Notes: generated from the sequence alone by a model not told the origin. A DNA stretch of 64,000 nucleotides from Eubacteriales bacterium (GCA_045602025.1 JAZSAT010000038.1:36157-100156); one strand, 5' to 3'. Numbered from the stretch's first letter, positions 11,101 through 52,409 are shown. Translations and numbers: made by a program.

Positions 11101-11324
11101 AACGCTTTCTTTCGTGCATTTTCCGCATCATTCCCCATCTTTGTCTGATCCTTGCCCTGATGATGCTCACTTTTTTTACCATTGATCTTTTTAATCCCTC
11201 TATGGCATTTTTAAATAACACCCTAACCAAATATCTTTTGGCACTTTTTTCTCTTCTTTCTCTTATTCCCGCACTGTATATGATCCTAAAAGAAGAAAAA
11301 GGTCAGAAAACAGAAAGGAAATAA
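11097..11324 (+). CDS. Small membrane protein (75 aa, 2 TM)
   Basis: It is hydrophobic and ATGA-coupled to the upstream gene. I recognise no family. Confidence 0.5.
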   Translation: MKRFLSCIFRIIPHLCLILALMMLTFFTIDLFNPSMAFLNNTLTKYLLALFSLLSLIPALYMILKEEKGQKTERK

Positions 11325-11325
11325 T

Positions 11326-19643: not shown

Positions 19644-20220
19644 GTGTTTTATCTCCCTTTTCATCCAGCAAGCTCAAAAGCATCTTTTTCCCGCGGACAA
19701 GCTGTTGCTTTGTAGCAGAAACAGACTGAAACATTAATTTCGCCACTTCCGAAACCGTCATTTCCATTACAAAATGGTAATAAAGAGCATCGCGATATTT
19801 TTCATTCAATGCGGCGATCCCTTTCAGTACCTTTTCATAATCCATTTTGTTGCATACCGTTTCAAAAAAACGGTCGTCACACAGCTCCTTCTTTCCCACA
19901 GAGCTGTATTCCGGAATTTGGTCTAAAGAAATATTTGCCTTCTTTTTCTCCTTGATCATATTAAGGCTCGTGTTTTTAGTGGCTTTCAGTAAATAATTTC
20001 GCATGTCCGTATCATTTTCGATACTGCGAACCACATCAAAATTCCGGGAAGCGATCCTTTCGAAAACCGTTGCAACTGCATCCTCCGCATCTTCCTCTTT
20101 TTTCAGGTACGACATTGCAAGGCTCATCATTTGTTTGGAGTAAGAATAAAAAATATCCTCCAAAAGTTTCTGATCCTTTTCGTCATCTAAATAGGCAAGT
20201 ATCAAATTGAGGTTGATCAT
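19624..20220 (-). CDS. RNA polymerase sigma-70 family factor (ECF/SigI-like, 198 aa)
   Basis: It has a region-2-like segment (DAEDAVATVFERI) and a region-4 HTH (YRDALYYHFVMEMTVSEVAKLMFQSVSATKQQLVRGKKML). Confidence 0.75.
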   Translation of the reverse strand: MINLNLILAYLDDEKDQKLLEDIFYSYSKQMMSLAMSYLKKEEDAEDAVATVFERIASRNFDVVRSIENDTDMRNYLLKATKNTSLNMIKEKKKANISLDQIPEYSSVGKKELCDDRFFETVCNKMDYEKVLKGIAALNEKYRDALYYHFVMEMTVSEVAKLMFQSVSATKQQLVRGKKMLLSLLDEKGDKTHGNHKK

Positions 20221-37840: not shown

Positions 37841-38653
37841 TCAAGATTTGTCTTTTTTTTCTTTGTCGATTCCTAAATTCCGCTTCAGAATATCTCTCCC
37901 TCTCCAGGAAAAAGCACGGCTGAGAAACTCTTTTTTGGGAAGAGAGATCACCTCTTCGGAAAGATATGGGATGTGGTCCGTCTGAAAAAAAGGAATAGGC
38001 GTTTTCTCCGCCTTTTGATTCATCGGGCAGACGCTTTGGCAAAGGTCGCACCCCCATTTGCATTCCGCCTGTTCCAAAATTTTTTCTTCCTCTTCGGTCA
38101 AATTCTTTTTTTGAGACAAAAGAGAAAGGCATTTTGTTCTCTCTTTGTCAAAAATCGCACCGGTGGGACAAGCCTTTTCACACAGTCCGCAAGAGGAGCA
38201 TTTTTTGATTTCTCCCCTGTTTTCGGAAGGAAGTGAGCGATTCAGAAAAAATGCGCCGATGAAAAAATACGAGCCGTATTTTTCATTGATGCAAAGACCG
38301 TTCTTTCCCAACACACAAAGACCTGCGCCCAGAGCAGCATCCCGCTCCCCAAGAGGGGAAGAATCCGCAAAACCCTTGAAGGAAATATCAAGCTTTTTCT
38401 CGCGAAGATATTCTCCAAAACGGTGGGATAATTCTCTCATATACAAATGATAATCCTTTACCTGAGCATATACAGAAAGATTGGTGGTCTTCTGCCCGAA
38501 ATAATAGGGAATGAGAAAAACGCAAACACTCCCGATCTTCCCGATCTCCTCTTGGGCGCGCAAAAATTTCTTTTCATCCCAAATGATGACATCCGAGATG
38601 GAAAGAATCTTGTAATATTCAATATTCTCCTGATCAAAAAACGGTTTTAACAT
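37841..38653 (-). CDS. queG: Epoxyqueuosine reductase-like 4Fe-4S protein (QueG-like, 270 aa)
   Basis: The start MLKPFFDQ has the SD ggagg. It contains CSSCGLCEKACPTGAI and WGCDLCQSVCPMN. A terminator hairpin overlaps its last codons. Confidence 0.65.
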   Translation of the reverse strand: MLKPFFDQENIEYYKILSISDVIIWDEKKFLRAQEEIGKIGSVCVFLIPYYFGQKTTNLSVYAQVKDYHLYMRELSHRFGEYLREKKLDISFKGFADSSPLGERDAALGAGLCVLGKNGLCINEKYGSYFFIGAFFLNRSLPSENRGEIKKCSSCGLCEKACPTGAIFDKERTKCLSLLSQKKNLTEEEEKILEQAECKWGCDLCQSVCPMNQKAEKTPIPFFQTDHIPYLSEEVISLPKKEFLSRAFSWRGRDILKRNLGIDKEKKDKS

Positions 38654-38699
38654 ATTTTCCTCCAAGAAGAAGTGTATCAAAAAAAGCCCTTACCGTCAA

Positions 38700-40067
38700 T
38701 TATTTTTTCAAAAAGTCAAAATAGGGGCGTTTGGTTTCCTTTCCGAAAAATTCCGCACGAATATCACGGATCACCTCTTTCCCCTCTCTCGTTTCTCCCG
38801 GCAAAAAGGGTAATGAAGAAAGTCCGTAGCGCAGAGCATCGGGCGCGTGGGTATATTCGTGAGGGGTAAGGGCCGCGTCCTCTGCCACCGTCGGGTCAAA
38901 GGTAAGCTTTGGCAGAGTGCGGATCAGATTTTTGCAGGTGGAAAAGATCTCAAGATATGCGCCGTCTTCCCCATCGGCACGCAAAAATTCCCTGACTCTC
39001 CGCCATCCGGGAATCCGTGCATTTTCTGCGGGAACAAGGCCGTTTACCCCACCCTTTTTCAAAATATCAAAGCCTGTCTTTCCCGTATCCTGTCTCCTTC
39101 CCGCAAGATCGGGCGAGGCGGTGATATAGCGGATCTTTTCTGTTCCTGTCATACGACAGATCTTCTCCGCTGCAGCAGAAAGAATGAGGTTTTCTTCATA
39201 AAGCTCCCGATAGATCACAAGTCGACTGCGATCGGGCGGATAGGCAAAGAGAAGGCAGCAAGTCATATCAAGACCGTAGTCCATCGCCCCGAAGCGGTGC
39301 CAACTTTCCGGGATCTCAAAGGGCTCTGTCACATGCCTTGCCCGATCGAATTCGGGAAAATATTGCCCTTCAAAAGCATCCCAATCTCCCTCCAGCATTG
39401 CCTTTTTCCGAAGAGGCGGAAGGCTTTCCAGGTTCCTGACATATTCGGGATTTTCCTTTAAAAGATAGCGGTTGTCATAAACGGTGGAGGGAATGAAAAC
39501 ATAGTCCTCCTCCCTCTCCCCTTCCCGATAATCCCGATCGATAAAAAGCCGTTTCACCCAAGCATGTCCCACACCGCCGGGGTTACAGGTAAAGTACATC
39601 CTCGGAGTAAATTTCTCCCGCATGGATCCGGAAAGGCGGCAGCACTCTGTCATGGCATAATACTGGCTTTCCGTAAATTGGGTAGCCTCCTCCATCCCGA
39701 TCACCTCATAGGCCTGTCCCTGGTACTGCAGAGCATCCGCCTCCTCGGAAAGATAGCCGAGCTTAATGCGGGACCCGGAAGGAAAAATAAATTCCTTTGA
39801 GGATTCCCGAAAAGAGGCAATGCCGTAAAGCCATCTTCTCAAGGGATTGATATGATTTTCCCGAAGCTCGGGAAAGCTTCTTCTCAAAAGCAGGATCTGA
39901 ATCCCCGGAAAGCGAAGGGCAAGCAGAACCAGTTTTGCGCGCATAGCAAAGCTTTTTCCGCCGCCGCGGGCACCGCCGTAGGCGATCCTTCTCGCCCTCG
40001 CTTTGAAAAATTCCTCCTGTGGGGGAAAGGGACGAAGAGAAGACAAAAATTTTTCGATTGTATTCAT
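38700..40067 (-). CDS. Phage terminase large subunit (455 aa, apparently intact)
   Basis: It has a Walker A motif (GGARGGGKS), a Walker B-like motif (YEVIGMEEAT) and a C-terminal nuclease-like region (GAMDYGLD, HAPDALRY). No SD is recognisable before the ATG. Confidence 0.8.
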   Translation of the reverse strand: MNTIEKFLSSLRPFPPQEEFFKARARRIAYGGARGGGKSFAMRAKLVLLALRFPGIQILLLRRSFPELRENHINPLRRWLYGIASFRESSKEFIFPSGSRIKLGYLSEEADALQYQGQAYEVIGMEEATQFTESQYYAMTECCRLSGSMREKFTPRMYFTCNPGGVGHAWVKRLFIDRDYREGEREEDYVFIPSTVYDNRYLLKENPEYVRNLESLPPLRKKAMLEGDWDAFEGQYFPEFDRARHVTEPFEIPESWHRFGAMDYGLDMTCCLLFAYPPDRSRLVIYRELYEENLILSAAAEKICRMTGTEKIRYITASPDLAGRRQDTGKTGFDILKKGGVNGLVPAENARIPGWRRVREFLRADGEDGAYLEIFSTCKNLIRTLPKLTFDPTVAEDAALTPHEYTHAPDALRYGLSSLPFLPGETREGKEVIRDIRAEFFGKETKRPYFDFLKK

Positions 40068-40074
40068 TTATCAC

Positions 40075-40103
40075 TTGACAAATCGCAAAAAAGAGATTAA
40101 GAT
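40075..40103 (+). promoter_or_regulatory. Promoter TTGACA-17-TAAGAT for the thi operon
   Basis: The -35 is at 40075-40080, only 8 nt from the terminase start codon on the other strand. The -10 is at 40098-40103. Confidence 0.6.
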
Positions 40104-40107
40104 GAAT

Positions 40108-40262
40108 TCACGCACAAGAGCGGAAAAACAGGGGTGCTACGGCTGAGATGCAGATTGCTGCAAACCCTTTAACCTGAGATGGATAATACCGGCGTAGGGA
40201 GTTTTGAAAGAGATGCAGATTCGCGTTCGCACGGGACTTCCGTCCTGTGCGAATTTTTTATA
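40108..40262 (+). promoter_or_regulatory. TPP (THI-box) riboswitch with terminator expression platform
   Basis: Conserved aptamer elements are GGGGTGC, CTGAGA, ACCCTTTAACCTGAGATGGATAATACC and GGCGTAGGGA. They are followed by the hairpin ttcgcacgggac/ttcc/gtcctgtgcgaa plus T6 (40226-40259), then the SD taaggag. Confidence 0.85.
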
Positions 40263-40274
40263 AGGAGTCTTACA

Positions 40275-40931
40275 ATGAGAAAAGACAAAACAAAAAAACT
40301 GGTTACCTCGGCGATGCTGATCGCCCTGGGAAGCGCCATTTCCCTGGTGTCGGAATGGATTCCCTTTTTAAATCTTCCCTTCGGTGGCACCATTACACTG
40401 GCAAGCCTTCTTCCCCTTGTTCTGATCTCCTATCTTTACGGTGTAAAATGGGGACTTGGCTCTGCCTTCGTCTATTCTCTCATTCAGATGGCAATCGGGT
40501 TTAAAACCGTATCCGCCCTTTTCATTCCTACCTCCGATTCCTATATGGGAAGCGTTCTGGTCGCCTTTCTCATTCTCCTTTTAGACTATGTTTTCGCCTA
40601 TACTTCGGTAGGTTTTGCAGGGGTATTCCGAAACAGACTTTCCAAAAAATGGGCAGTGTGCTTCGGCTCCATCTTAGGCCTTTTCCTCTGCTACTTTTTC
40701 CACGTGCTCTCCGGTGCCATCTTCTACGGCGCCTGGGCAGAGTGGTTCTTTGTGGAAAGTGCTGCAAAGGACCTTGCCATTTCTTCCTGGGTCATGAAGA
40801 CCTTCTCCGGGGCAGGCCTTGCCGCCGTATACTCCATTGTGTATAACGGCCTTTATATGCTGCCGGAAATTGTCATTACCGCAGTAGCCGGCTTTGCCGT
40901 CACAAAAATTCCTTCTCTTAAGAAAGACTGA
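40275..40931 (+). CDS. thiT: ECF-type thiamine transporter S component ThiT (218 aa)
   Basis: It is a 6-TM protein directly behind a TPP riboswitch. The N-terminus is KKLVTSAMLIALGSAISLV. Confidence 0.8.
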   Translation: MRKDKTKKLVTSAMLIALGSAISLVSEWIPFLNLPFGGTITLASLLPLVLISYLYGVKWGLGSAFVYSLIQMAIGFKTVSALFIPTSDSYMGSVLVAFLILLLDYVFAYTSVGFAGVFRNRLSKKWAVCFGSILGLFLCYFFHVLSGAIFYGAWAEWFFVESAAKDLAISSWVMKTFSGAGLAAVYSIVYNGLYMLPEIVITAVAGFAVTKIPSLKKD

Positions 40932-40933
40932 TT

Positions 40934-41539
40934 ATGAAAACATGCCATGTGGTAGGGGCAGGAGACTTTGCTCCGCATCTTTTAAAAATCGAAAAAGGCG
41001 ATCTTGTGATTGCCGCCGATGCAGGGTTTGACCATTTAAAGCGCGCCGGAATCTCAGCCGATCTTTACATTGGTGACGGTGACTCCTTGGGCTTTGTTCC
41101 CGAAGAAGTCGATACCGTGGTTCTCCCCACTGTCAAAGACGATACCGATATTCACGCTGCGGTCAAAGCAGGCCTTAAAAGAGGCTTTACCCATTTTCTT
41201 ATCTACGGTGCTTTGGGCGGGAAACGATTTTCCCATTCCCTTGCCAACCTTCAGGTTCTCTTTTTCCTAAAAAAAGAAGGTGCCACGGGAAGCCTTGTAG
41301 ATGAAAATTATTCGGTTTTTCTTTTAAGCGAAGGCTCCTATACCTTTGATTTTGAAAAAGGATATTTTTCCCTTTTCGATTTCGAAGGAAAGGCTACCGT
41401 TTCCGTAAAAGGGGCAAAATACCCTTTGGAAAAAGCGACCCTTCCCAATCATACCACACTTGGCATTAGCAACGAAGGAGAAAAAAGCACCTCCATTACC
41501 GTACACGAAGGAACCATCTTTTTGGTCAGAGAGCCTTAA
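40934..41539 (+). CDS. thiN: Thiamine diphosphokinase (201 aa)
   Basis: The TPK catalytic block is VIAADAGFDHL...DLYIGDGDSL...DDTD. The C-terminal part is a thiamine-binding-like domain. Confidence 0.8.
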   Translation: MKTCHVVGAGDFAPHLLKIEKGDLVIAADAGFDHLKRAGISADLYIGDGDSLGFVPEEVDTVVLPTVKDDTDIHAAVKAGLKRGFTHFLIYGALGGKRFSHSLANLQVLFFLKKEGATGSLVDENYSVFLLSEGSYTFDFEKGYFSLFDFEGKATVSVKGAKYPLEKATLPNHTTLGISNEGEKSTSITVHEGTIFLVREP

Positions 41540-41935
41540 CTACTCTGCCCACACAGTACACACCCCAAGTCCTTCAGGAATATCCTCTCCACTCCCTTCC
41601 CCTCGCCAACGGTCAAAATTGGTTTCCAAAAACAGCTTTGCGCCGTGGAAGGTATCCTTGGAGAAGAGCTTTTCCTCCGCATTTTCCTCAATTCTTGAAA
41701 GCGCTCGGTCAATGAGTGCTTTTATTTTTTTATTCTTAATGGCAAAAAGTTCCTCTCGGCGGGAAAAGCCCAGGGCAAGAGCAAGCCCTGTTACCGTACA
41801 GGGCTTTTCCTCGTAAAGCACCTCTCCTCCTTTTCCTACCATCACATCTCCCTCCTGATTCTTTCTCTCTACCTTACGGGATTCAAAATATGAACATATC
41901 CTTTTCGTGACAAATTCCTCTGTCATCTTTTTCAC
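41540..41935 (-). CDS. Phage terminase small subunit (131 aa)
   Basis: It has the characteristic HTH block CTVTGLALALGFSRREEL. A GTG start at 41935 lies 7 nt after aaggag, and an alternative ATG is at 41926. Its stop abuts the thiN stop with no spacer. Confidence 0.7.
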   Translation of the reverse strand: MKKMTEEFVTKRICSYFESRKVERKNQEGDVMVGKGGEVLYEEKPCTVTGLALALGFSRREELFAIKNKKIKALIDRALSRIEENAEEKLFSKDTFHGAKLFLETNFDRWRGEGSGEDIPEGLGVCTVWAE

Positions 41936-42113
41936 GATCTTTCTCCTTTTTTTGAGGATTGTAACCGAAAGTAGCACTGACCCGCAATGACAAAAAAGAG
42001 CCCGAAGGCTCTTTTCAGATAAAAGATAAAAGAAATGGTTGGCATTTGCAAATGCAAATGTCTTCCTTACCTTTTCACTTTTCACTAAAAAAAGCACCCA
42101 ATCGGGTGCTTTT

Positions 42114-42964: not shown

Positions 42965-43687
42965 ATGAAACAAAAATTTTCCCTTTCCCTTTTCTGTTCC
43001 CTGGGAATGCTCCTTTTTACCTTTGTAACCTTTGCTTGGTTTTCCGATGTGGAAGGGTTTCAATTTGGCTTTGAGATCCCCGTAGGTACGGAAAACGGCC
43101 TTTTGTCCACCCTGGCAGACTGTGTCTGGATGGCTGCCCCCTTTCTTTTTACAGTCGGTTTATTCATTCACTCTGTTTCCGAAAGGATCCGTCTTTTCCT
43201 TTCCTCTTCCCCGCTTTTTTTGTATGCCATTCTCCGCATTCTATCCTACCTTGGCGGAAAGGAAAGTCACCCCATCCTCTTTTTTACCCTCTTTTCCCTG
43301 ATCCTCATCGGTGCCTTTTCCGCAGTGGCCGCCTTTGTTCCCGAGGCAAGAAAAAGCGCCGCATTGATCGCCTTTTCTTACGGTGCCGCGGAAACCCTAC
43401 TCCTTCTTTTTTCCGCCTTGTTTCAGGAAAAGTATTCCCTCTTTTATTTTTCTCAGCTGATTCCCATGGGGCATACCTCCTATTTAAGATATAGCTTTTT
43501 CACCATTTCCACTTATCTTTATTATCTCTTCTATGCATTGGGTCTCGGCATCCGCCTTTTACCCCCGAAGAAAAATTGCGAAGATACAAAAGAAAAAATC
43601 ATTCCGGAAATCATCAACGAAACGGAAGAAATCAACGAAGAAGATTTTTCCTCCCTCAGCTTAGAGGATCTTGGAATTTCAAAATAA
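42965..43687 (+). CDS. Multi-pass membrane protein with acidic C-terminal tail (240 aa)
   Basis: The start MKQKFSLSLF follows aaaggag. It has about 6 TM helices. I recognise no family. Confidence 0.5.
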   Translation: MKQKFSLSLFCSLGMLLFTFVTFAWFSDVEGFQFGFEIPVGTENGLLSTLADCVWMAAPFLFTVGLFIHSVSERIRLFLSSSPLFLYAILRILSYLGGKESHPILFFTLFSLILIGAFSAVAAFVPEARKSAALIAFSYGAAETLLLLFSALFQEKYSLFYFSQLIPMGHTSYLRYSFFTISTYLYYLFYALGLGIRLLPPKKNCEDTKEKIIPEIINETEEINEEDFSSLSLEDLGISK

Positions 43688-43704
43688 TTACAGAAAGGAT
43701 CATT

Positions 43705-44958
43705 ATGAAAAAAGTATTAGAATTTGGCTACGGCAAAGGAATTCAGCAGGTTCAGCTTCCCGAAGAAAATGTAATGGGTGTTCTTGTTTCCAACGAGATC
43801 GACCACGAAAGAAAACACGAGGAAGCTGTCATCTACGCCCTGGAAAACCCCATCGGCAAAGAAAGACTTTCCACCTATGACCTTCGAAACAAAAAGATCG
43901 CCATTGTTACCAGCGACATTTCCCGCCCCCTTCCCAGCTACCGCATTCTTCCCGCACTTTTGGACGAGCTTGAAAAAGCAGGCGCCGAAATGAAAAACAT
44001 CGTGGTCGTTTTGGCTCTCGGCTCTCACAGGAACCACACCGAGGAAGAAAAAATTGCCCTTTGCGGAAAAGAAGCATATGATAGAGTTCGCTGCATCGAT
44101 TCCACCCCGGGTGACTGCATTCATATGGGCGTAACAAAAGCCGGCACCCCTGTGGATGTATCCCGCGAGGTGGCAGAAGCAGATTTCAAAATCTGCCTCG
44201 GCAACATTGAATTCCACTACTTTGCAGGCTATTCCGGCGGTGCCAAGGCCATTATGCCCGGTGTTTCTACCCCCGAAGCCATTCAGGCAAACCACCGTAT
44301 GATGGTTTCTCCCGATGCCCACGCAGGAAAGCTGGAAGGCAACCCCATCCGCGAGGACATTGAGGAAGCAGGCAATATTTGCGGCATCGACTACATTGTA
44401 AATGCCGTGCTTGACGAACATAAGAACATTGTTTATGCCGTTGCGGGTGATGTAACAAAAGCTCACCGTGAGGGCTGCAAATACTTAGATAAAATGTACC
44501 GCAAGCCTCTGAAGGAAAGAGCCGACATCGTTCTGGTCTCCCAGGGCGGCGCACCCAAGGATGCAAACCTCTATCAGACTCAGAAAGCACTTGACAATGC
44601 CAAGCACGCCGTGAAAAAGGGCGGCACCATCATTCTCATCGGTGCTTGTAATGAAGGTATGGGCAGCAAAAAGTTCGAATCCTGGCTCACCTCCGCTCCC
44701 ACCGCTCATTCCATGGTAGAGCGTATCCACAAGGAATTTGAGCTTGGCGGCCACAAAGCAGCGGCCATCGGTATGGTACTTGAGGATGCTGACATTTTCT
44801 TTGTTTCCGAAATGGATCCCGATTTTGTCCGCAGCATTTTCCTGACTCCCTTCTCCTCTGCTCAGGATGCGTTTGATGTGGCCTTTGAAAAATACGGCCC
44901 CGATGCCAAGGTTCTGGCAATGCCCTTCGGCGGTGCTACCCTCCCCATGGCAGACTAA
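43705..44958 (+). CDS. larA: Nickel-pincer-dependent lactate racemase family protein LarA (417 aa)
   Basis: It reads MKKVLEFGYGKG..., then VTSDISRPLPS, LGSHR and IEFHYFAGYSGGAKAIMPG. These match LarA conserved blocks. Confidence 0.85.
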   Translation: MKKVLEFGYGKGIQQVQLPEENVMGVLVSNEIDHERKHEEAVIYALENPIGKERLSTYDLRNKKIAIVTSDISRPLPSYRILPALLDELEKAGAEMKNIVVVLALGSHRNHTEEEKIALCGKEAYDRVRCIDSTPGDCIHMGVTKAGTPVDVSREVAEADFKICLGNIEFHYFAGYSGGAKAIMPGVSTPEAIQANHRMMVSPDAHAGKLEGNPIREDIEEAGNICGIDYIVNAVLDEHKNIVYAVAGDVTKAHREGCKYLDKMYRKPLKERADIVLVSQGGAPKDANLYQTQKALDNAKHAVKKGGTIILIGACNEGMGSKKFESWLTSAPTAHSMVERIHKEFELGGHKAAAIGMVLEDADIFFVSEMDPDFVRSIFLTPFSSAQDAFDVAFEKYGPDAKVLAMPFGGATLPMAD

Positions 44959-44965
44959 AATTAAT

Positions 44966-45002
44966 AAAAAAAAAGAACAGCCTCTCGGCTGTTCTTTTTT
45001 TC
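44966..45002. terminator. Bidirectional terminator
   Basis: The hairpin agaacagcc/tctc/ggctgttct is flanked by A9 and T8. Confidence 0.8.
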
Positions 45003-45004
45003 TT

Positions 45005-46360
45005 TTAATCCTTCAATTCATCAAGCTTTAATTCATCAAGCATATCCAGATACTCGGTAACCATCTCCTCGCCGGTTCCGGCTGCAAAGGTGCAGGCCTC
45101 TACCTCATAACCGCCGTTCTTGAAGCCGAGAGCGGAGGGAATATACCCGAAGGCGTGGTTGGTATATGCCAAAACAAAGGTCATATCAAAGGGGGAAGCC
45201 GCCTTGATCTGAACACCGTTGGTACAGAACATTTCATAAGGTGCGGTAACAAATGCTACCGGTCCGAGAGAAATGGCACTGACATGAATATTTTCTCCCA
45301 TATCCGGTGTACGGTTACTTCTTCCCAAAATACCCTTTGCGTGATAATAGGAATGATAACCGTATTTTTCGCAAAGCTTATTGATCTCTGTCCAGTCTTC
45401 ACCGCGGTCAAAGGCAGCACAGATCTCTTTTGCCTCCTCAGCATTGAATCCGGGAGGATTCAGCTGAAGATGACCGAAGTGATCCCTCTCTACCACGCGG
45501 ATCTTGTCAAATTCCACAAGCTTCATATTGTCAAGGGCTTTGGCAAGGTAATTTGTCAGCTCAATGCCGTGCTTGATATGGTTGGAGTTGGAGATCTCTC
45601 CCTTAACGGAGGAGTTGGGAACCACATTTCCTGCTGCTCCCTGATAGAAAGCAAACAGAATATCCAGTTTTTTCTCAGCAGCATCACGGAAGCCGCCCAC
45701 CCAGTCAGCCGATACATCGGTGCGCTTCAGGCCGCTTGTGGTCGTAACATGGCAGGGGAAGTTTACCATAACAACATCCTTTGCGCCGGCTCTGCGGAAA
45801 CGGATCACCTGAAGAGTCGGGTCAACACGGGTCTCGTGCATAGCAATGGGCGCATTGCTGGGGGTAACATACGCAACACCGGAGAAGGTACCGTCAGCGC
45901 GGTAGTAGCGGCGCACATAGTTCATCTGATGGGTATCAATGCTACCCACATACATCTCGGCAGTCTTAAGACTGTCTACAGCATCCTTTGCCGCCTTCTG
46001 CATGCCTTCATAGAAGGTGGGAAGGAAGGACTCTACGGATTTTGCACCGTCACGCACATTGGGAGCAGAGTGGTTATGGGTGGCAGTAATAAAAATATTC
46101 TTTCTGGGGATAGAAAGGTTTTCCTCCACCCATTCAGAAACGATGCGGTGGTTTTTCCTGGAAACACCAAGAAGGTCCACGCTGTAAAACAGAAGGGTTT
46201 CTTCTCCGTCGGAAATGGCAACACAGGTCAGACACAGGTCGTCCATAATGTTTTCACTCAGTCTCGCATCCGTATTACCGAAGCCTCCGAGGCCGACTCC
46301 CTTCGGGATATCCATTGCAACACGGCCGTATCCCACACGCAATGTTTTCTTTTCTTTCAT
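45005..46360 (-). CDS. Neutral/alkaline ceramidase N-terminal-domain-like hydrolase (451 aa)
   Basis: The block FITATHNHSAPN parallels the ceramidase metal-binding THTHSGP block. The N-terminus is RVGYGRVAMDIPKGVGLGGFG. Confidence 0.55.
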   Translation of the reverse strand: MKEKKTLRVGYGRVAMDIPKGVGLGGFGNTDARLSENIMDDLCLTCVAISDGEETLLFYSVDLLGVSRKNHRIVSEWVEENLSIPRKNIFITATHNHSAPNVRDGAKSVESFLPTFYEGMQKAAKDAVDSLKTAEMYVGSIDTHQMNYVRRYYRADGTFSGVAYVTPSNAPIAMHETRVDPTLQVIRFRRAGAKDVVMVNFPCHVTTTSGLKRTDVSADWVGGFRDAAEKKLDILFAFYQGAAGNVVPNSSVKGEISNSNHIKHGIELTNYLAKALDNMKLVEFDKIRVVERDHFGHLQLNPPGFNAEEAKEICAAFDRGEDWTEINKLCEKYGYHSYYHAKGILGRSNRTPDMGENIHVSAISLGPVAFVTAPYEMFCTNGVQIKAASPFDMTFVLAYTNHAFGYIPSALGFKNGGYEVEACTFAAGTGEEMVTEYLDMLDELKLDELKD

Positions 46361-46544
46361 TATTTTTCTCCTCTTTATTTTTCAGGTTACAACCTTTAAA
46401 TTCAAAAGCATTTTTATACATAACTACTTCTTTTTTCATTATAGTTTCTTCAATCCGCGATTGCAAGGCTTTTTTGAAAAAAAGTCCGTGTCAAGGTTTT
46501 TTCCTTCGCATAAAATATACTGTGGAAAAAGAAGGGAGAATCTT

Positions 46545-47327
46545 ATGAAAACCATCTATCTTCAAGGTGTTGACCCAAGACTTGTTCTTTTGGGAGAGCG
46601 CGCCCTGGAAACAGGCCTTCGCGTATATAAAAAGATTCCCGACAAGGCAGAAAAAGAAGCCGTTTTTGTTTTTGATCCTACAGAAAAAACCGAAAACATA
46701 CTTCCCGTATTGGAAAAAGCAGAAAAAGGCTCTCTTTTTTTGCTGTGGAGAACCGATCCCGAGATCTTCGCTCGCGCCGAAGAAAAAAAGATCCGTGTCA
46801 AAAACATTTTGGAAGACAAGACATATCTTTTAAAAAATGCGCGGGAAACCGCGGAAGGGGTGCTTGCCAGTGTGATCGTGGAAACCGACCGTGTCCTTTC
46901 GGATCAGTGCATCTTAGTCTACGGCTACGGAAATTGTGGGCAAGAAATTGCAAAGCTCCTGTGGCTTCTCGGGTGCGAGGTCTTTATCTGGTCCAGAGAA
47001 CGGGGCTGCAAAAAGGCCTTGGACGACGGCTTTAATATTTACCCCGCACCAACAAAGGGTCTTTTTATGTTCGACGGCGTAGTCAACACCGTTCCCGAAC
47101 AGATTTTTTCTCCCGAGCTTCTCTCCACTCTGCGGCCAAATACACATTTTTTTCAAGTAGCAAGCGGCACAAGCGGCATTTCGGAAAAGCTTCTGAAAAA
47201 CAAAGGAATCCTTTATCACGATCTTCACGGGCTTCCGGGGAAATTTTCTCCCGCTACCGACGCCGATGCCCTCTTTGATGTTCTGACCGCAGTCATTTCC
47301 GACGAAAAAGAAAGGATATCCCTATGA
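46545..47327 (+). CDS. dpaA: Dipicolinate synthase subunit A (260 aa)
   Basis: The start MKTIYLQG follows gaagggagaa. It has a Rossmann motif (VYGYGNCGQEIAKLL) and a 4-nt overlap with dpaB. Confidence 0.8.
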   Translation: MKTIYLQGVDPRLVLLGERALETGLRVYKKIPDKAEKEAVFVFDPTEKTENILPVLEKAEKGSLFLLWRTDPEIFARAEEKKIRVKNILEDKTYLLKNARETAEGVLASVIVETDRVLSDQCILVYGYGNCGQEIAKLLWLLGCEVFIWSRERGCKKALDDGFNIYPAPTKGLFMFDGVVNTVPEQIFSPELLSTLRPNTHFFQVASGTSGISEKLLKNKGILYHDLHGLPGKFSPATDADALFDVLTAVISDEKERISL

Positions 47328-47887
47328 AAACCATCGGATTTGCCATGACGGGGTCCTTCTGTACTTTGGAAAAAAGCCTTTTCTTAATGGAGGAGATGAC
47401 AAAAAAGTATACAGTCCTTCCCATTATTTCCGAGCGTGTTGCAGAAACAGACACCCGTTTTTTTAAAAAAGAAGAGGTAATCGCCCGCATAGAAAAAATT
47501 ACGGGGCAAAAGCCCCTGAAAAGCATTTGCCAAGTGGAGCCGATCGGACCGAAAAAGATGCTGGACCTTCTTCTCATCTGTCCTTGCACGGGAAATACCC
47601 TTTCCAAAATGGCTTATGGAATCACTGACAGCTGTGTGACCATGGCAGCAAAATCCCAGCGGCGGATCGGTGGAAATGTACTGATCGCGCTTTCTACCAA
47701 TGACGCCCTCTCGGGCAGTGCCGCGAGCCTTGGAACAATGCTTGACAAAAAAGGCTTTTTCTTTGTTCCCTTAAAGCAGGACGACCCTTTGGGGAAACCC
47801 GCTTCCCTGCAATGTGATTTTTCTCTCGTTCCGAAAGCCCTTGAGGCTGCTCTGGAGGGAAAAAGCCTCACACCTCTTTTTTTATAA
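47324..47887 (+). CDS. dpaB: Dipicolinate synthase subunit B (flavoprotein, 187 aa)
   Basis: It contains MKTIGFAMTGSFCT and CPCTGNTLSKMAYGITDS. Confidence 0.85.
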   Translation: MKTIGFAMTGSFCTLEKSLFLMEEMTKKYTVLPIISERVAETDTRFFKKEEVIARIEKITGQKPLKSICQVEPIGPKKMLDLLLICPCTGNTLSKMAYGITDSCVTMAAKSQRRIGGNVLIALSTNDALSGSAASLGTMLDKKGFFFVPLKQDDPLGKPASLQCDFSLVPKALEAALEGKSLTPLFL

Positions 47888-47931: not shown

Positions 47932-50900
47932 TTAGAGTTCTACCTTGCCGCCAAGCTCAGCTTCTGTGCCGGCTTCGGGAGGATTCACGATCGAAACATC
48001 TCTGTTCAGGTAGTTATCAACTGCCTGAATGTAAATGAGGACATGCTTTGCAAGGCTGTTGTCAGGCTCCTTATTGATAATGCTCTGAGCCACCCAATCT
48101 ACCTGATCGGAAAGGGTAAGACACTTCTTACCGTTCTGATCAAAAATCTCAAAGTCCATCTTGTTCTGCATTTTAGATACGCTGAAGAAAATATCCACCG
48201 TAAATTCATATCTATCGCCCACCAAAACAGGCTCGGATACATCGCATACAGAGGTAACATCCTCTCCGTCTACCAGGATCTTCAAGCCATTTACACTCTC
48301 TGCGCTTGCCGCGGTACCGTAGAGACGGATACCGAGCGCATCATTCATCAGAAGGTTCTTGCCGGTAAAGGTAAGAAGTGCACCCTCTTCCGCTGCGCTG
48401 CCGCTTGCTCTGCTCGTCACAGCAGTATGATGAAGGTCGTGCTCTGCAAAACCGGGATTCAGTACGACTCTGCCAAGATCCGCAATGGAGTAGAAAAGCT
48501 GCTTGTCTCTGAATTCTGTGCAGCTTGCCGCGCCAAGCTCCGCAAGCTTAACAATGGTATTGTATTTTGCGCTGTTGGCATCATAGATTGTTTCACCCAG
48601 GATCGCAAATTCTGTCATAAAGTCGGAAAGTCCGATTCCGCCAAAGGAAAGAACATAATATTCTCCTTCTGCAGTCAAATCGGCAAAGCCGCCTTCTGCC
48701 AGCTTCTGTCCGCCCAGAAGAACCGTATAGGTAAAGTCTTCTGTGATATCCGCCTTGTTAAAGTAGAATTTCACACCTACTCTGGTATCCAAAAGAAGCT
48801 TTGCGGATACAGGAGCTACAAAGGTAGCCTCCTTGTAAGTACCTACAACCGTATTTGCATCTACCGCACCCTGACCGCAAACATAATCAGCAACCGAAAG
48901 CGTAAGCTTTCCGGTAGAATCGGTCAGGTAGGTACGGTCCTGCCAGTATTCTACCTGTGATACGGTTACATTGCCTTCCTCTGCGCCTGTAATGGTAACA
49001 GAGGCATCCTTGCCCACCTGAATGATACCGCTGCCGGTAAGAGATTCAACGGTGGTAGTACCGTAGAAGGTAATGGGCTTTGTGCCCAGGTTAAATGTAA
49101 GGGTTGCAGTGGTAACACCGCTGGTTTTCGCGCCCTTTGTAACGCTGCCGCGGAAAGCACCGCCGTTGATCGTGGTATTTACCGTGGGAATGGTAGCACT
49201 TTCACCTCCGCCGTAGAAGGTAGTGATATCACCGCCGGAAATGGTATTGGTTACCGTACCGGTTACCGTTCCGCCCTTGGAGCCGCCGTAGAAGGTACCG
49301 ATCGTACCGCCGTAAATTTCATTTTCAATGCTGCCGCTGAAGGTATTCACGCGGCTGCCGCCATAGAAGGTACCAACCTTACCGCCAAGGAAAATGTTCT
49401 TTACAAGTGCCGCAGAGCCGCCGTTGGCCGCCGCATATATGCCTTCCATGTCTGCGCCGTCTCTGATATAAGTTACAATTTTCGTTGTTACCTTACCGCT
49501 GTTACATCCGCCGCTGGGGTATCCTGTCATTTTTGCGGCAAAATGGTTTTCGATCTCATTGACTGTTGCGGAGTTACTGCCACAGTAGAAGCCTGTAGTA
49601 AACTTGGTCTGAGCCCCGCAAATGGTATTCTTAATGATCTTGTCGGTAGCAGTGGAAGCAGAAGCTCCGGAATAGCGAATAAAGCTTGCACCGTCGATCT
49701 CATTGATAATACGGTAAGTAAGGGAATCGTTTTCAGCAAAGGTAGCCAGGCTGTTACCGCCGTAGAACCAGTCGCCCTGGAAGGAAGCACCCTTGATCTT
49801 GTTGGTGATAGAGCCCTTAACGGTATATCCGCTCTTTTCGGTACCACCGTAGGTATTGTAAGAAGCAAGCTTCGCGCCTGTATCATCGTAGGTAATACCG
49901 CCGTAAGTACCGCCGATAAAGCTGTTTTCAATATTGCCGATAATGTTTCTGGTATAGTTACCGCAGAAAAGATTACCGAAAATAGTACAGTTCTTAAAGG
50001 TATTCTTAATGTTACCGTTCACCTGATTCTCGTAAGCGCCCATATAATGGCTGGCAGTAGCAGGCATGGTTACATTTTCAAAATAGTTCTCAATGGAAGC
50101 GGGAGAACCGCATCTTACACCGATAAAGGTAGACCCTGTAGCATTGGCAAAGCTTACATTTCTCAAAATATTGGTTACCTTGCCGCTGCCGCCACCGCCG
50201 TGGATCGCATCGCCCAGGGAGACACCCTGAATATTAAAGGTAACATCGCCCGTACAGCTACCGGGATTTGAACCGGAGCCGAAAAGACCTCTCAGATACT
50301 TCTGAATGGTAATTTCGCCGTCGGTAGGAGCAACTGTCAGGTTCATATCACCTTGAAGGTGACCGTCCCAAAGCATGTTAACACCGCGAAGAGAGCCACC
50401 GGTTACAATAACATTCATATCACCGTAGTACTGCTCGCCCTGACCCTCGGTATCGCCGCTCTGAGAGGTGCTGTGATCACCGTAGATCATATTCACGGTA
50501 CCCTTCTTCAAATGAACGGTAGCATCGGAGGGAGCTCCGCCCAGCTTTGTACTGATGTTCTGAAGGATCGTACCTTCACCGTCAATGGTCAAAGTAGGCT
50601 TAACCTGATAGGGTCTGATATCTGCCGCACCGGACACACCGGAAGCATAATACTTGATCGCCTTTGCCTCAGCATCGGAAAGAGCAGTGGTATTCTGGTT
50701 GAAAAGATAACCGGAAGCCGCTGCGCGGATTACGTTAGAATCCACAAATTCCACACCGTCACCGATGGTAACACCGGTCTTAACGGTTTCCCCTTCCTTC
50801 AGGGCAGGCCAACCAACAAATACAGCATCGGTACAGTTGTCTGCAAACAGGTATCCCTTATGCTCAAAATCAGCACCGTATGCACCGATGGGAGAGTTAC

Positions 50901-52356
50901 CTACTTCATACCAAAGCATTCTGGCATTGGGATTATTTTCCTTGAAGAAATCATATACATCGCCGATACCAAATTTAGCAACCCCATTTTCCTTATAAAC
51001 GCAGTTATCGATAACCTTGGTCTTATTTACCTCGTGATCTCCGGGATAAAAACCAAAGTCATCCAGGTGGTTGGTGGTTTCAAATACTGCTACGCTATCC
51101 CATGCCTTTGCGGGAAGAATGTCGGAAAGCAGTCTTATCGTATTCATCTCGTTGGATTTTACCGCACCCTGGCCGTTTGCATCGTACCAAACCTGCATGG
51201 AGTAGTCGCCGTTATCATTATAAATGTTGGAAGCAATGGTAGAGAATGCAATACTGGAGGTGTAGGCGTGGTGCACCTTCATATTCACACCTGCAGCACG
51301 GGCAACGGAAGCAAGCTCATCAATGCAGTAGTAAGCATTGGAAGAGCCGATAATCAAAAAGTTATAAATATTGTCAGCACCGATATCATCGGGCAAAACC
51401 TCTGTGCAGTAGCCTTCACCGTATTCCGCCGCAACCGCTGCATGAGCGATCTCCTGAAGCTCTTCAAAGGTCATATCGCTGTTTTTCAGGCTATAGGAAG
51501 GACGGAAGGTGTTGCCGATACAGCTTTTTCTCGTCAGTGTTTCAAACAGTACACAGGCATACAGATACTGACCGCCGCCGATATCACCCTCGTGACGCCA
51601 GTCACCGTAGTCAAGACCGTTTTTCATGGAATTTGCAAAAAGGAGATGACCCAGTTCTTCATCGCCGAATGCCGCGCTTTCCGCAGCCAGCATAGCAGCG
51701 TCGTTTACAGGGATCAGATCCACATCGTAAGTATCTCTTACATGCTCGGAAAGATGGGTGGAAAGAGCCGCCATCTCTTCAAATTCATCTCTGGTGGGAA
51801 CCATCAGCTGTGTGGTTCCGGAAAAGTTCAGATCGCAGTCTACAAACTTAATATTACCGGAGCCTGCATAAAACTGTGTATTCTGAGCCGCAAGAGGCAC
51901 CGTCATATTCACAAAGGTATAGTCGTTGGCACAGGCATACCAGCCGCCTGCTGCATCCAGATAAATAGATGAATCACGCTCGTAATTCTTATCAATACCG
52001 CGGATGGTAATGGGAAGCTTGGTACCGTCCTCTCTCCAGATAGTCGTAGCAGAAAAGAGAAGTCCCTGCTTACCCGTGGTAGTGGAATCGATACCCTGAG
52101 GTCCTGCCGATACCAGATCGCCCTGGAAACGGATCTCAAGGACATCGTCCTTGCCCCAGGAAACCTTTGCTGCCTTCTGCATTGCTGCAACAAAGTTAGA
52201 AAAATGCAGCTTTCCTTCTTCTTCGTAATCCGCTACGGTATAGATCTCCGTAGGGGTCTGCACTTGCGCCTTTGCACCGATGAAAAGCGCACCTGTCACA
52301 CAGGTGACCAGCATCATGATCGCAAGAACAAGTGATATCAGCTTGCGTTTTGTCAT
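47932..52356 (-). CDS. Giant secreted glycine-rich solenoid (beta-helix-like) protein with nested SGNH/DUF4886-like module, paralog 1 (1474 aa)
   Basis: The start MTKRKLISLVLAIMMLV (signal peptide) has the SD ggagg. It contains long imperfect repeats of the form N.I.GG....FYGG. It aligns end to end with 52914..57341. Confidence 0.8.
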   Translation of the reverse strand: MTKRKLISLVLAIMMLVTCVTGALFIGAKAQVQTPTEIYTVADYEEEGKLHFSNFVAAMQKAAKVSWGKDDVLEIRFQGDLVSAGPQGIDSTTTGKQGLLFSATTIWREDGTKLPITIRGIDKNYERDSSIYLDAAGGWYACANDYTFVNMTVPLAAQNTQFYAGSGNIKFVDCDLNFSGTTQLMVPTRDEFEEMAALSTHLSEHVRDTYDVDLIPVNDAAMLAAESAAFGDEELGHLLFANSMKNGLDYGDWRHEGDIGGGQYLYACVLFETLTRKSCIGNTFRPSYSLKNSDMTFEELQEIAHAAVAAEYGEGYCTEVLPDDIGADNIYNFLIIGSSNAYYCIDELASVARAAGVNMKVHHAYTSSIAFSTIASNIYNDNGDYSMQVWYDANGQGAVKSNEMNTIRLLSDILPAKAWDSVAVFETTNHLDDFGFYPGDHEVNKTKVIDNCVYKENGVAKFGIGDVYDFFKENNPNARMLWYEVGNSPIGAYGADFEHKGYLFADNCTDAVFVGWPALKEGETVKTGVTIGDGVEFVDSNVIRAAASGYLFNQNTTALSDAEAKAIKYYASGVSGAADIRPYQVKPTLTIDGEGTILQNISTKLGGAPSDATVHLKKGTVNMIYGDHSTSQSGDTEGQGEQYYGDMNVIVTGGSLRGVNMLWDGHLQGDMNLTVAPTDGEITIQKYLRGLFGSGSNPGSCTGDVTFNIQGVSLGDAIHGGGGSGKVTNILRNVSFANATGSTFIGVRCGSPASIENYFENVTMPATASHYMGAYENQVNGNIKNTFKNCTIFGNLFCGNYTRNIIGNIENSFIGGTYGGITYDDTGAKLASYNTYGGTEKSGYTVKGSITNKIKGASFQGDWFYGGNSLATFAENDSLTYRIINEIDGASFIRYSGASASTATDKIIKNTICGAQTKFTTGFYCGSNSATVNEIENHFAAKMTGYPSGGCNSGKVTTKIVTYIRDGADMEGIYAAANGGSAALVKNIFLGGKVGTFYGGSRVNTFSGSIENEIYGGTIGTFYGGSKGGTVTGTVTNTISGGDITTFYGGGESATIPTVNTTINGGAFRGSVTKGAKTSGVTTATLTFNLGTKPITFYGTTTVESLTGSGIIQVGKDASVTITGAEEGNVTVSQVEYWQDRTYLTDSTGKLTLSVADYVCGQGAVDANTVVGTYKEATFVAPVSAKLLLDTRVGVKFYFNKADITEDFTYTVLLGGQKLAEGGFADLTAEGEYYVLSFGGIGLSDFMTEFAILGETIYDANSAKYNTIVKLAELGAASCTEFRDKQLFYSIADLGRVVLNPGFAEHDLHHTAVTSRASGSAAEEGALLTFTGKNLLMNDALGIRLYGTAASAESVNGLKILVDGEDVTSVCDVSEPVLVGDRYEFTVDIFFSVSKMQNKMDFEIFDQNGKKCLTLSDQVDWVAQSIINKEPDNSLAKHVLIYIQAVDNYLNRDVSIVNPPEAGTEAELGGKVEL

Positions 52357-52409
52357 TGTTTTTCCTCCAAAAAACTTTTTCAGGAATATTTCATTCCTTC
52401 GCACCTTAC

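Follow-up and report, generated by a model that had tools for sequence, protein, structure and literature searches.

What keeps two intact phage packaging genes in a bacterial chromosome, with no phage around them and with a thiamine operon running in the opposite direction between them? The question is raised by a stretch of 64,000 nucleotides from a Eubacteriales bacterium, called here the window, in which the genes for a small (TerS) and a large (TerL) terminase subunit lie on the same strand. I propose that they do the packaging for a particle system that derives from a phage and is inherited with the chromosome, a candidate gene transfer agent (GTA) of Oscillospirales-type Clostridia, and that they do not belong to a decaying prophage. 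Sequence comparison makes this the probable answer. That such a system produces particles and packages DNA at random is a further step, which I infer from the same comparison.

Two terminase genes and the operon between them

The features of the locus are collected in Table 1. The earlier note, made from the sequence alone, had taken TerL to be intact, with Walker A and B motifs and a nuclease region, and Pfam, PHROG and structural alignment agree. A profile of the family, built from 26 relatives, aligns with the solved large terminase 5oe8 (residues 31-418). The protein is full length and contains what is required of a large terminase: Walker A, Walker B with the catalytic glutamate, a coupling motif and three acidic nuclease residues. 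G31-S39 (Walker A), M125-E126-E127 and T160/N162 are kept in the window and in 26/26 relatives, and the same is true of the nuclease residues D263, D320 and D410 (D or E). TerL has more than 7,900 homologues, the best 120 of which are 59-100% identical to it and about 455 amino acids long. It also has a weak, below-cutoff match to the PBSX-family terminase model TIGR01547.

Table 1. Features of the terminase-thi locus, numbered from the first nucleotide of the window
Feature	Position	Strand	Remarks
TerL, large terminase subunit (ATPase and nuclease), 455 aa	38700-40067	-	Pfam Terminase_6N and Terminase_3; PHROG 979 and 2
thi promoter (TTGACA, 17 nt, TAAGAT)	40075-40103	+	-35 element at 40075-40080
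TPP riboswitch aptamer (RF00059)	40120-40217	+	Rfam 63.5 bits; gathering score 54.3
Riboswitch terminator and T run	40225-40260	+	hairpin 40225-40254
thiT, thiamine-specific ECF S component, 218 aa	40275-40931	+	PF09515; AAGGAG upstream
thiN, thiamine pyrophosphokinase	40934-41539	+	PF04263 and PF04265
TerS, small terminase subunit, 131 aa	41540-41935	-	PF16677 GP3_package, phrog_606; GTG start at 41935
Intrinsic terminator of the thi operon, antisense within the TerS coding sequence	41696-41734	+	stem 41696-41724, then T run
Promoter-like cassette upstream of TerS (GTCATTGCGGGTCAG, 13 nt, TACAAT)	41958-41991	-
Terminator hairpin and T run immediately upstream of the TerS cassette	about 41992-42015

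TerS is a small terminase of the P22 gp3 type, as judged both by its match to PF16677 (33 bits, against a cutoff of 29.4) and by its predicted structure (pLDDT 84.8), which has the P22 gp3 fold, with 3p9a as the best Foldseek match (probability 0.99, TM 0.48). The predicted model keeps the C-terminal tail and the oligomerisation core. TerS had been described as intact and as possessing a helix-turn-helix. The matches to PF16677 and phrog_606 uphold the first, but the second is not established, with an HTH-like pair of helices seen only in the predicted model. The gene is preceded by a Shine-Dalgarno sequence, AGGAGA, at 41942-41947, 6 nt upstream of the GTG.

The promoter, TPP riboswitch, thiT and thiN that had been recognized on the opposite strand between the terminase genes are all confirmed by Rfam and Pfam. 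The riboswitch scores above the gathering threshold of its covariance model and is followed by an expression platform, and it exceeds the gathering score in 8/8 orthologous loci tested. A search of the literature for an association of terminase with thiT found none.

The junctions are as tight as had been claimed. The stop codon of thiN reaches to 41539 and that of TerS occupies the positions from 41540 on, leaving 0 nt between them. At the other end, the thi -35 element is indeed close to the TerL ATG (40067), at a measured distance of 7 nt rather than 8. The corresponding distance is 2-10 nt (mostly 5-10) in 13/14 thi-carrying loci inspected, L014 being the exception. The terminator embedded in TerS belongs with the insert as well: most of the loci with thi genes have its hairpin and T run at the corresponding place in TerS (absent in L013, weak in L014), with 94.5% of cells paired in the alignment and one compensatory pair. 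It has decayed in L009, is absent from clades B and C, both of which lack the insert, and was found in no locus without thi genes.

Conservation of the layout and the loci of relatives

If the terminase genes were merely left over, they should be falling apart. Instead, the arrangement of TerS, thiT (with or without thiN) and TerL is found in 15 distinct genomes (the window, L086, L005-L008, L010-L014, L018, L019, L021 and L089), with TerL identity as low as 61%, answering the question of conservation across species that the earlier note had put. All carry thiT between the terminase genes, and thiN is present in 10/15. TerS is full length in 15/15, the TerL copies are all 455-457 amino acids long with invariant catalytic motifs, and there is neither a frameshift nor a truncation in the terminase genes of relatives, nor a complete prophage at the site.

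The purifying selection that the earlier note asked about is evident from the NG86 omega values amongst orthologues, 0.03-0.12 for TerL and 0.08-0.17 for TerS (0.14-0.38 for ThiN), values that are rough because dS is saturated (at least 0.9). Between the window and L086, amino acid identity is 89% for TerL, 88% for ThiT, 80% for ThiN, 79% for TerS and 75% for QueG. TerL diverges more slowly than the neighboring GrpE, HrcA, ThiN and QueG, and its identity tracks that of host genes, lying between DnaK and GrpE/HrcA.

Where, then, is the rest of the phage? The observation that the 64 kb hold no other phage gene stands: amongst 45 other ORFs compared with PHROGs and Pfam, none belongs to a phage structural or integration family. 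In tblastn searches with portal, capsid and tail proteins encoded at related loci, no match was found in the window, nor did a search for capsid find one on the window's own contig of 135,099 bp.

The relatives suggest where to look. In a simple neighbor-joining tree of TerL, the split loci fall into a single clade, and its sister clade carries a contiguous 9-kb cluster, TerS-TerL-portal-scaffold-capsid-...-holin, which lies beside lepA-hemN. Across 28 loci of the sister clade, only the block from TerS to holin is conserved, without any integrase or replication family, and the flanks consist of lepA-hemN and other housekeeping genes. All clades sit within a conserved lepA...prmA neighborhood. 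The clade to which the window belongs has its portal-capsid genes at a locus of their own. One contig (JAZLXM010000010.1 of GCA_054271275.1) has TerS/thiT/TerL near 23-26 kb and, 64 kb away, the block portal-scaffold-capsid-127-569-248 near 90-96 kb, and in L005 the TerS/TerL and portal-capsid blocks are separated by 3.9 kb. The head genes are more conserved than a neighboring host gene (capsid 85% and portal 79% identical, versus 61% for MnmA), and the capsids belong to PF25209 (P22-coat-like). The coat protein has 278 amino acids, and the portal, of PF16510, about 525. The window's own genome presumably carries a portal-capsid locus elsewhere, as its relatives do. Clade B loci consist of TerS-TerL only, plus a serine recombinase next to TerL; apart from that recombinase, no integrase, primase or replication gene, att site or repeat is conserved around any locus. 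The 9-kb cluster has relatives amongst IMG/VR contigs and also on a 9.6-kb scaffold from a faecal virome. Of the 80 closest TerL relatives retained from IMG/VR, none falls in the split clade (best identity 59%).

The separated blocks are tied together by a promoter-like motif. GTCATTGYNNGKCA occurs once in each of 13/169 fetched loci, always in the sense of TerL. It immediately precedes TerS or, in L087 and L088, which are separate structural loci, the portal gene. It was found in none of 80 viral loci. The window has a single exact copy, at TerS, and TerL has none. In L014, the cassette stands before a tail fibre-endolysin-holin-TerS operon, whose tail-fibre and lysis proteins have no homologue in the window or the other loci.

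Taken together, the loci display three of the traits by which a GTA is known. In the window and the 28 sister-clade loci, phage-derived genes are chromosomal and unaccompanied by genes for replication, integration or lysogeny. Vertical inheritance and purifying selection are indicated by omega, by the tracking of DnaK, GrpE and HrcA, by the fixed neighborhood and by the single clade. In relatives, the genes are spread over several loci that share a promoter motif, on the same contig 64 kb apart.

A model for the split cluster, and its rivals

In the ancestor, the genes would have lain compactly within about 9 kb, as TerS-TerL-portal-scaffold-capsid-connector/tail-holin, in the neighborhood lepA-hemN...dnaK-dnaJ-prmA. 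In the window's clade, the cluster may have broken into separate loci, TerS and TerL remaining paired and the portal-capsid block moving off with its own copy of the insulated promoter cassette found at TerS. A TPP-riboswitch-controlled thiT would then have inserted, in opposite orientation, exactly at the translationally coupled TerS-TerL junction and been retained since, thiN joining it later. With its own sigma-70 promoter and riboswitch attenuator, the thi operon would have evolved its final terminator inside the TerS frame, on the opposite strand. Of the options offered in the earlier note, this model retains a domesticated module acting GTA-like in trans, favored by conservation, selection, synteny and a separate portal-capsid locus with the same motif. 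The PICI-like variant of that option fails, no integrase, replication gene or att site being conserved around any locus.

How is TerL transcribed in this arrangement? The earlier note had found no recognizable Shine-Dalgarno sequence before it, which is true of the window but not of the family, since some orthologues have AAGGAG or AAGAGA there. Because that sequence is missing, gene callers have truncated TerL to 415 amino acids in several database entries. A sigma-70 promoter just upstream of TerL was sought, and nothing turned up other than the thi -35 element in reverse. There is no upstream ORF to which the TerL start could be coupled, and a search of the thi cassette for a conserved terminator reading in the same sense as TerL gave none. 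All this agrees with the contention that a TerL transcript must start upstream and cross the thi operon. With no promoter motif of its own, TerL is therefore most likely expressed from the TerS promoter, by transcription that reads on through 1.5 kb of thiN-thiT in antisense, though it may instead use an internal promoter that has escaped recognition.

Such a route invites the thought that the TPP riboswitch decides whether convergent thi transcription collides with the terminase transcript, because TerL is apparently reached only antisense through thiN-thiT, with the thi promoter head-on 7 nt away. Ample TPP would terminate thi transcription early, leaving read-through into TerL unobstructed; thiamine starvation would permit thi transcription, which would block TerL and hence DNA packaging. 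I consider this a doubtful idea. If true, production of GTA-like particles would be gated by a metabolite riboswitch, in a layout kept down to 61% TerL identity. The more general option of antisense coupling to thiamine status, the third in the earlier note, may hold, given that long conservation, the lack of a promoter motif at TerL and the lack of a conserved terminator in its path.

What else might the terminase genes be doing? They may serve killer or lysis particles, tailocin-like or in the manner of PBSX, that package DNA and do not deliver it, and thus are not functionally a GTA. Holin and endolysin genes within the regulon of relatives fit this, and the same doubt has been raised regarding FpGTA (PMC12946183). 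The conserved nuclease and ATPase of TerL argue that packaging matters, though they would matter equally to PBSX. On balance, killer particles are an unlikely account, yet the one that best survives beside the GTA.

A good deal less likely is that TerS and TerL have been exapted for a capsid-free host function, for instance in DNA processing, repair or defence, and that the relatives' portal-capsid loci have nothing to do with them. The lack of any structural gene in the 64-kb window is what one would then expect, as are clade B loci reduced to the terminase genes and a serine recombinase. It is hard, however, to see why unrelated loci should bear the same rare promoter cassette before TerS and before the portal gene, occur as two blocks in the same genomes, and constrain capsid and portal just as strongly, or why the TerS model should retain its C-terminal tail and oligomerisation core.

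The remaining two explanations have very little chance of being correct. A prophage remnant, decaying neutrally or carried along by chance with the thi operon, might leave just two phage genes in an interrupted order with a poor TerL Shine-Dalgarno sequence, but not full-length ORFs in at least 15 genomes down to 61% identity, with omega no higher than 0.17, TerL more conserved than most of its neighbors and catalytic residues invariant; with no frameshift, truncation or complete prophage at the site in relatives, the remnant offered in the earlier note is rejected. Equally improbable is a phage satellite (a PICI or capsid-forming PICI) or mobile mini-element hijacking a helper phage, which would account for the compactness of a gene set that includes TerS and TerL and for the IMG/VR and virome relatives, but not for borders devoid of conserved integrase, primase/replication gene or att repeat, a chromosomal neighborhood fixed across clades, divergence that tracks host genes, or the missing split clade amongst those 80 best IMG/VR relatives. 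The candidate GTA is left as the probable reading.

Significance and comparison with known systems

Long-read sequencing of virus-like particles has shown that host DNA is packaged in a GTA-like manner in Oscillospiraceae, Ruminococcaceae and Christensenellaceae, and Faecalibacterium is the only case in which the genes responsible are known (PMC12946183). In one Oscillospiraceae genus, a further study came upon no convincing cluster (10.64898/2026.07.08.737213). Packaging of 4.6 kb or 8.4-8.9 kb has been reported for Ruminococcus callidus, Gemmiger and Onthomonas. The terminase family described here offers a testable candidate for GTA-like particles in many uncultured gut and rumen Clostridia. 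The family includes a 9-kb cluster encoding a P22-like coat, and one clade has the genes at several loci instead, recognizable by a particular promoter cassette. Since TerL is truncated in several database entries and has no phage genes beside it, the system would be hidden from prophage and GTA finders. The loci also illustrate how a domesticated phage operon can be remodelled: split into separate loci, its promoter duplicated, a riboswitch operon inserted at a coupled junction and an antisense terminator placed within a coding sequence.

Genuine phages of the Oscillospiraceae type (IMG/VR contigs of 35-41 kb) have TerL proteins 50-55% identical to that of the window. These are full-size viral genomes, none within the split clade and none with the promoter motif. 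PBSX of Bacillus subtilis is likewise defective and chromosomally fixed in a Gram-positive host, and packages host DNA, but it is contiguous and unsplit, spans about 28 kb, and has a contractile tail, its own repressor and no thi insert.

RcGTA-type agents, regulated by CtrA/GafA, are an unrelated lineage, of siphovirus type with an HK97 capsid and a packaging operon free of any metabolic insert. These viriforms of Alphaproteobacteria likewise consist of vertically inherited, phage-derived head and packaging genes under purifying selection, distributed over several apparently co-regulated loci without a self-replication module (10.1101/2022.06.10.494566).

The closest known system is FpGTA of Faecalibacterium prausnitzii, as compared by annotation only and despite a different capsid family. 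Its TerL and portal carry the accessions RCH50852 and RCH50851. The TerL is labelled 'Terminase-like family', which I take to be an older name for PF03237, the family matched by TerL of the window. The FpGTA capsid is of the N4-gp56 family, with a Prp-like protease between portal and capsid, whereas the capsids here are PF25209; these and the small protein between portal and capsid (L087, L004) matched no NCBIfam model and do not have the features by which FpGTA is annotated. TerS of both FpGTA and RcGTA is described as lacking a DNA-binding domain, while TerS here is predicted to have the full P22 gp3-like fold. The FpGTA genes span about 10 kb, in the order TerS-TerL-portal-(small protein)-major capsid-several unknowns (Nat Commun 2026, PMC12946183). 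There TerS, TerL and head genes are contiguous, whereas here TerS and TerL stand apart from the head genes and from each other. The likenesses are a host amongst Gram-positive gut Clostridia, podovirus-type parts and freedom from replication and integration genes, and FpGTA too has a second chromosomal locus, with tail-fibre and lysis genes, that resembles the multi-locus layout seen here (PMC12946183).

The terminase genes and their constraint

The gene identities and order that the earlier note read at 38700-41935 hold up, with Pfam, PHROG and Rfam-type scores in agreement. Its tight junctions are there too, the stop codons of thiN and TerS directly adjoining (0 nt), except that 7 nt, not 8, separate the -35 hexamer of the thi promoter from the TerL ATG. 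TerS begins with GTG, with AGGAGA 6 nt upstream. That no other phage genes lie nearby also stands: none of the 45 other ORFs of the window matches a phage structural, packaging or integration family, and the portal, capsid and tail proteins of related loci, used as queries, match nothing there. The window has no tRNA genes, and no compositional island was seen in it.

Positions of features in the window (unless a related locus is named)
Feature	Position	Strand	Description
ECF-type sigma factor and putative anti-sigma partner	19624-20220 and 18975-19664	minus	
QueG-like 4Fe-4S protein	37841-38680	minus	downstream neighbour of TerL
TerL	38700-40067	minus	455 aa; Pfam Terminase_6N + Terminase_3; PHROGs 979 and 2, "terminase large subunit"
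thi promoter	40075-40103	plus	sigma-70-type, TTGACA-17-TAAGAT
TPP riboswitch	40120-40217	plus	63.5 bits (gathering score 54.3)
Riboswitch terminator	40225-40254 (hairpin)	plus	hairpin + T run
thiT	40275-40931	plus	PF09515
thiN	40934-41539	plus	thiamine pyrophosphokinase; PF04263 + PF04265
TerS	41540-41935	minus	131 aa; PF16677 (P22 gp3-type packaging protein), phrog_606
Intrinsic thi operon terminator	41696-41734	plus	hairpin + T run, antisense inside TerS reading frame, codons KNKKIKALIDRALS
Promoter-like "insulated" cassette	41958-42015; L087 7850-7905; L088 7830-7885	minus (window)	
Palindrome GCATTTGCAAATGC	42042-42055		perfect, 14 bp; upstream of TerS promoter cassette, between two terminator-like hairpins
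Two giant ORFs	47932-52404 and 52914-57341	minus	1,490 and 1,475 aa
Fibre/lysis/TerS operon of L014	4662-9131		tail fibre 546 aa, collagen-like repeats

The QueG-like gene keeps its place 19-50 nt downstream of TerL in every type A locus, including L009, a relative discussed below, and it may be co-transcribed with TerL. The palindrome GCATTTGCAAATGC looks like an operator and is not conserved in alignments of orthologous loci. A pair homologous to the ECF sigma and anti-sigma genes (63% and 35% identical) occurs only 4.7 kb downstream of TerL in L001/L010 (L001 16098-17320), which may reflect loose linkage to the terminase locus or chance.

Both terminase genes are intact, as had been claimed. 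The database holds more than 7,900 TerL homologues, of which the best 120 are 59-100% identical and mostly 445-470 aa long, a minority being truncated gene calls or fragments; many of these 120 lie on chromosomal contigs of 100-400 kb. A profile of 26 homologues aligns with the solved large terminase 5oe8 over residues 31-418. Substitutions in Walker A, the Walker B/catalytic glutamates, the T-x-N coupling motif and the three nuclease acidic residues are conservative where there are any. Across orthologous loci, omega (Nei-Gojobori) is 0.03-0.12 for TerL, 0.08-0.17 for TerS, 0.14-0.38 for ThiN and 0.05-0.14 for the QueG-like gene, values that are rough because dS is saturated; the purifying selection that the earlier note had made its check is there. 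Between the window and its closest relative (L086), amino-acid identity is 89% for TerL, 88% for ThiT, 80% for ThiN, 79% for TerS and 75% for QueG. In genomes with the dnaK operon nearby, TerL identity lies between that of DnaK and those of GrpE and HrcA (in one example 93% against 97%, 90% and 88%; in another 80% against 90%, 65% and 66%), which argues that TerL diverges in step with its host under strong purifying selection.

The earlier note gave TerS a helix-turn-helix. An AlphaFold model built from 34 homologues (mean pLDDT 84.8) has a helix at the N terminus, a beta-hairpin insertion found only in the split clade (the thi-carrying lineages and clade B), two helices paired like a helix-turn-helix, a long helix for oligomerisation and, at the C terminus, a disordered tail. 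The structure it matches best is 3p9a, the small terminase of P22. The predicted fold thus makes the assignment plausible, a DNA-binding role going no further than that.

Spread and ancestry of the split arrangement

A survey limited to one genome for each species yielded 80 loci, and later look-ups added more. The TerS-thiT(-thiN)-TerL layout, with thiT on the opposite strand, is conserved in 15 genomes, the window's and 14 others (L086, L005-L008, L010-L014, L018, L019, L021 and L089), over TerL identities to the window from 89% down to 61%; thiN is present in 10 of the 15. The TPP riboswitch sits at the same position in all eight loci tested, and the last thi gene is abutted or overlapped by TerS in every thi-carrying locus. 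Of 14 such loci inspected for the spacing, 13 have the thi -35 at 2-10 nt, mostly 5-10, from the TerL ATG; L014 is the exception. To judge from these sequences, the split arrangement is old. L009 falls among the thi carriers in the neighbour-joining TerL tree, yet lacks the insert and has the ancestral TGA-n-ATG junction; TerS and TerL are rejoined there at 9604-11365. It is most likely a secondary loss, which could have come about by precise loss of the 1.5-kb cassette or by allelic replacement through recombination.

In this simple tree the loci without adjacent head genes, those of clade B and the thi-carrying lineages, form one clade. Clade B has TerS and TerL followed directly by a serine recombinase. 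The recombinase is large, with Resolvase, Recombinase and Zn_ribbon_recom domains (L002, L016, L017, L020 and L067; about 11550-12890 in L002), and no other phage genes stand beside the three in these five loci. In the sister clade, which has some 45 genomes at species level (Ruminococcus, Oscillospiraceae and "Eubacteriales" MAGs), the genes form one contiguous stretch of about 9 kb. It holds TerS and TerL, portal (P22_portal), a scaffold-like protein (about 180 aa) and coat (PF25209, about 275 aa), then two small proteins, a virion/connector protein (phrog_3287, about 570 aa), another protein of about 400 aa, and holin(s). Across 28 sister-clade loci no family is conserved outside this block, so that an integrase, a repressor or a replication gene as a conserved member is excluded.

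The flanks of the sister-clade cluster are housekeeping genes, and in at least 14 loci lepA and hemN are the immediate upstream neighbours of TerS. The thi clade has hrcA-grpE-dnaK-dnaJ 5-8 kb upstream of TerS in four loci, and clade B has prmA-rsmE immediately downstream of TerL. I take all of these to be parts of the Firmicutes lepA-hemN-hrcA-grpE-dnaK-dnaJ-prmA-rsmE neighbourhood, and therefore the simplest history is one ancient insertion followed by vertical descent. True phage relatives are distant: those in IMG/VR are contigs of 35-41 kb whose TerL is 50-55% identical, the best match to TerL in that database reaches 59%, and isolated phages reach at most 39%. A human faecal virome scaffold recorded as "unverified bacteriophage" (L085, MT836592.1, 9,588 bp; TerL 51% identical) fits the same TerL-portal-scaffold-coat-connector order into 9.6 kb; it may be a copy of a related GTA-like cluster that was packaged or mis-binned.

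Partner loci and expression

The dispersed head genes that the earlier note proposed to look for exist in relatives as separate loci, and not in the window. In L005 (TerL 84% identical to the window's), genes for scaffold, coat and proteins of 127, 567 and 244 aa lie 3.9 kb upstream of TerS, beyond four host genes. Window positions 42980-47881 are syntenic with those four genes; past them the window has its two giant ORFs where L005 has head genes. No Pfam match was found for the syntenic 1,525-aa protein of L086, and the window's two ORFs were scanned in bulk only. Homologues of the L005 coat number more than 2,000; identity among the best 120 is 66-98%, and nearly all of them have 272-286 aa (mode 278). 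Two of these belong to L087 and L088, six-gene clusters of portal, scaffold, coat and proteins of 127, 567-569 and 248-319 aa, flanked by housekeeping genes with no terminase near. One 154-kb contig, JAZLXM010000010.1, has both one of these six-gene clusters and a TerS-thiT-TerL-QueG locus, about 64 kb apart.

One and the same cassette precedes TerS in the thi clade and clade B, and the portal gene in L087 and L088: a terminator hairpin and T run, GTCATTGYNNGKCA, a TANAAT box 13-15 nt on, and a strong SD. The -35 region is not sigma-70-like, and in clade B the GTCAT repeat is present two to four times. Written as a regular expression, the cassette matched 16 times in 2.97 Mb, always upstream of TerS or portal with one exception: in L014 it precedes an operon that encodes a tail fibre with collagen repeats, small proteins, an endolysin (GH25-like), a holin-like protein and, last, TerS. 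Its 14-nt core is present in 13 of 169 loci, once in each, in none of the 80 viral loci, and a single time in the window, at 41978-41991. No copy of the cassette lies at TerL. The separate head-gene loci and TerS appear to be co-regulated.

A hairpin and T run on the thi strand lies 157 nt beyond the thiN stop, within TerS. The other type A loci have this structure too, at the corresponding codons of TerS (94.5% of cells are paired, and one change, C-G to U-A, is compensatory); the distant thiT-only loci L018, L019 and L021 have a different, GC-rich hairpin and T run in the same place, while that of L014 is weak and L013 has none. Clades B and C, without the insert, have neither hairpin nor T run, and L009 keeps the TerS protein sequence KKVKALIDRALL with hairpin and T run broken (dG -2.5). 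The thi terminator was thus written into the antisense strand of TerS, and its decay in L009 fits the secondary loss proposed above.

Across the thi cassette there is no conserved terminator-like site in the TerL sense, and there is no recognisable promoter between the riboswitch and the TerL ATG. From this I infer that TerL transcripts would start at the TerS promoter and cross about 1.5 kb of thi sequence in antisense; an unrecognised internal promoter driving TerL is possible. The earlier note found no recognisable SD for TerL, which is right in that the window's is poor, but orthologues carry AAGAGA or AAGGAG there. Gene callers often shorten TerL to 415 aa, likely because the true start lacks an SD and abuts the thi promoter; such calls (L089 11257-12627; database entries P0031, P0033, P0036 and P0041) begin at Met42 and lose Walker A.

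Comparison with known systems

Of the explanations offered earlier, the best supported is that of a domesticated packaging module, GTA-like and with its partners in trans, such partner loci having been seen in relatives; this is probably what TerS and TerL represent. Antisense coupling of thiamine status and terminase expression is an attractive possibility. No paper was found that connects terminase genes to thiT or to a TPP riboswitch. A PICI-type satellite is ruled out, there being no integrase, replication genes or att sites. Simple prophage decay is rejected: the genes are intact and constrained (low, if rough, omega) in a layout conserved to 61% TerL identity.

The nearest described system is FpGTA, the gene transfer agent of Faecalibacterium, in which a 10.5-kb operon has TerS, TerL, portal and capsid, a second locus has fibre and lysis genes, and 40-nm particles carry 8.4-8.9 kb of host DNA (PMC12946183). 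GTA-like packaging was also reported in Oscillospiraceae, Christensenellaceae and Ruminococcus callidus, the responsible genes not being identified (PMC12946183). The likeness is one of layout and does not make the window's family an established member. The fibre/endolysin/holin operon of L014 resembles the FpGTA II-type fibre/lysis module, in L014 joined to the packaging locus. In FpGTA the capsid carries the annotation N4-gp56 family and has a Prp-like protease as its neighbour (PMC12946183), whereas the coat of the window's family is PF25209, and neither the coat proteins nor the adjacent small protein have an NCBIfam match; it is annotation that sets the families apart. Unlike the TerS of RcGTA and FpGTA, described as missing a domain, that of the window apparently misses none. 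I propose the window's family as a candidate GTA family, distinct by annotation from FpGTA and unusually fragmented, in whose packaging operon a metabolic operon has become fixed.
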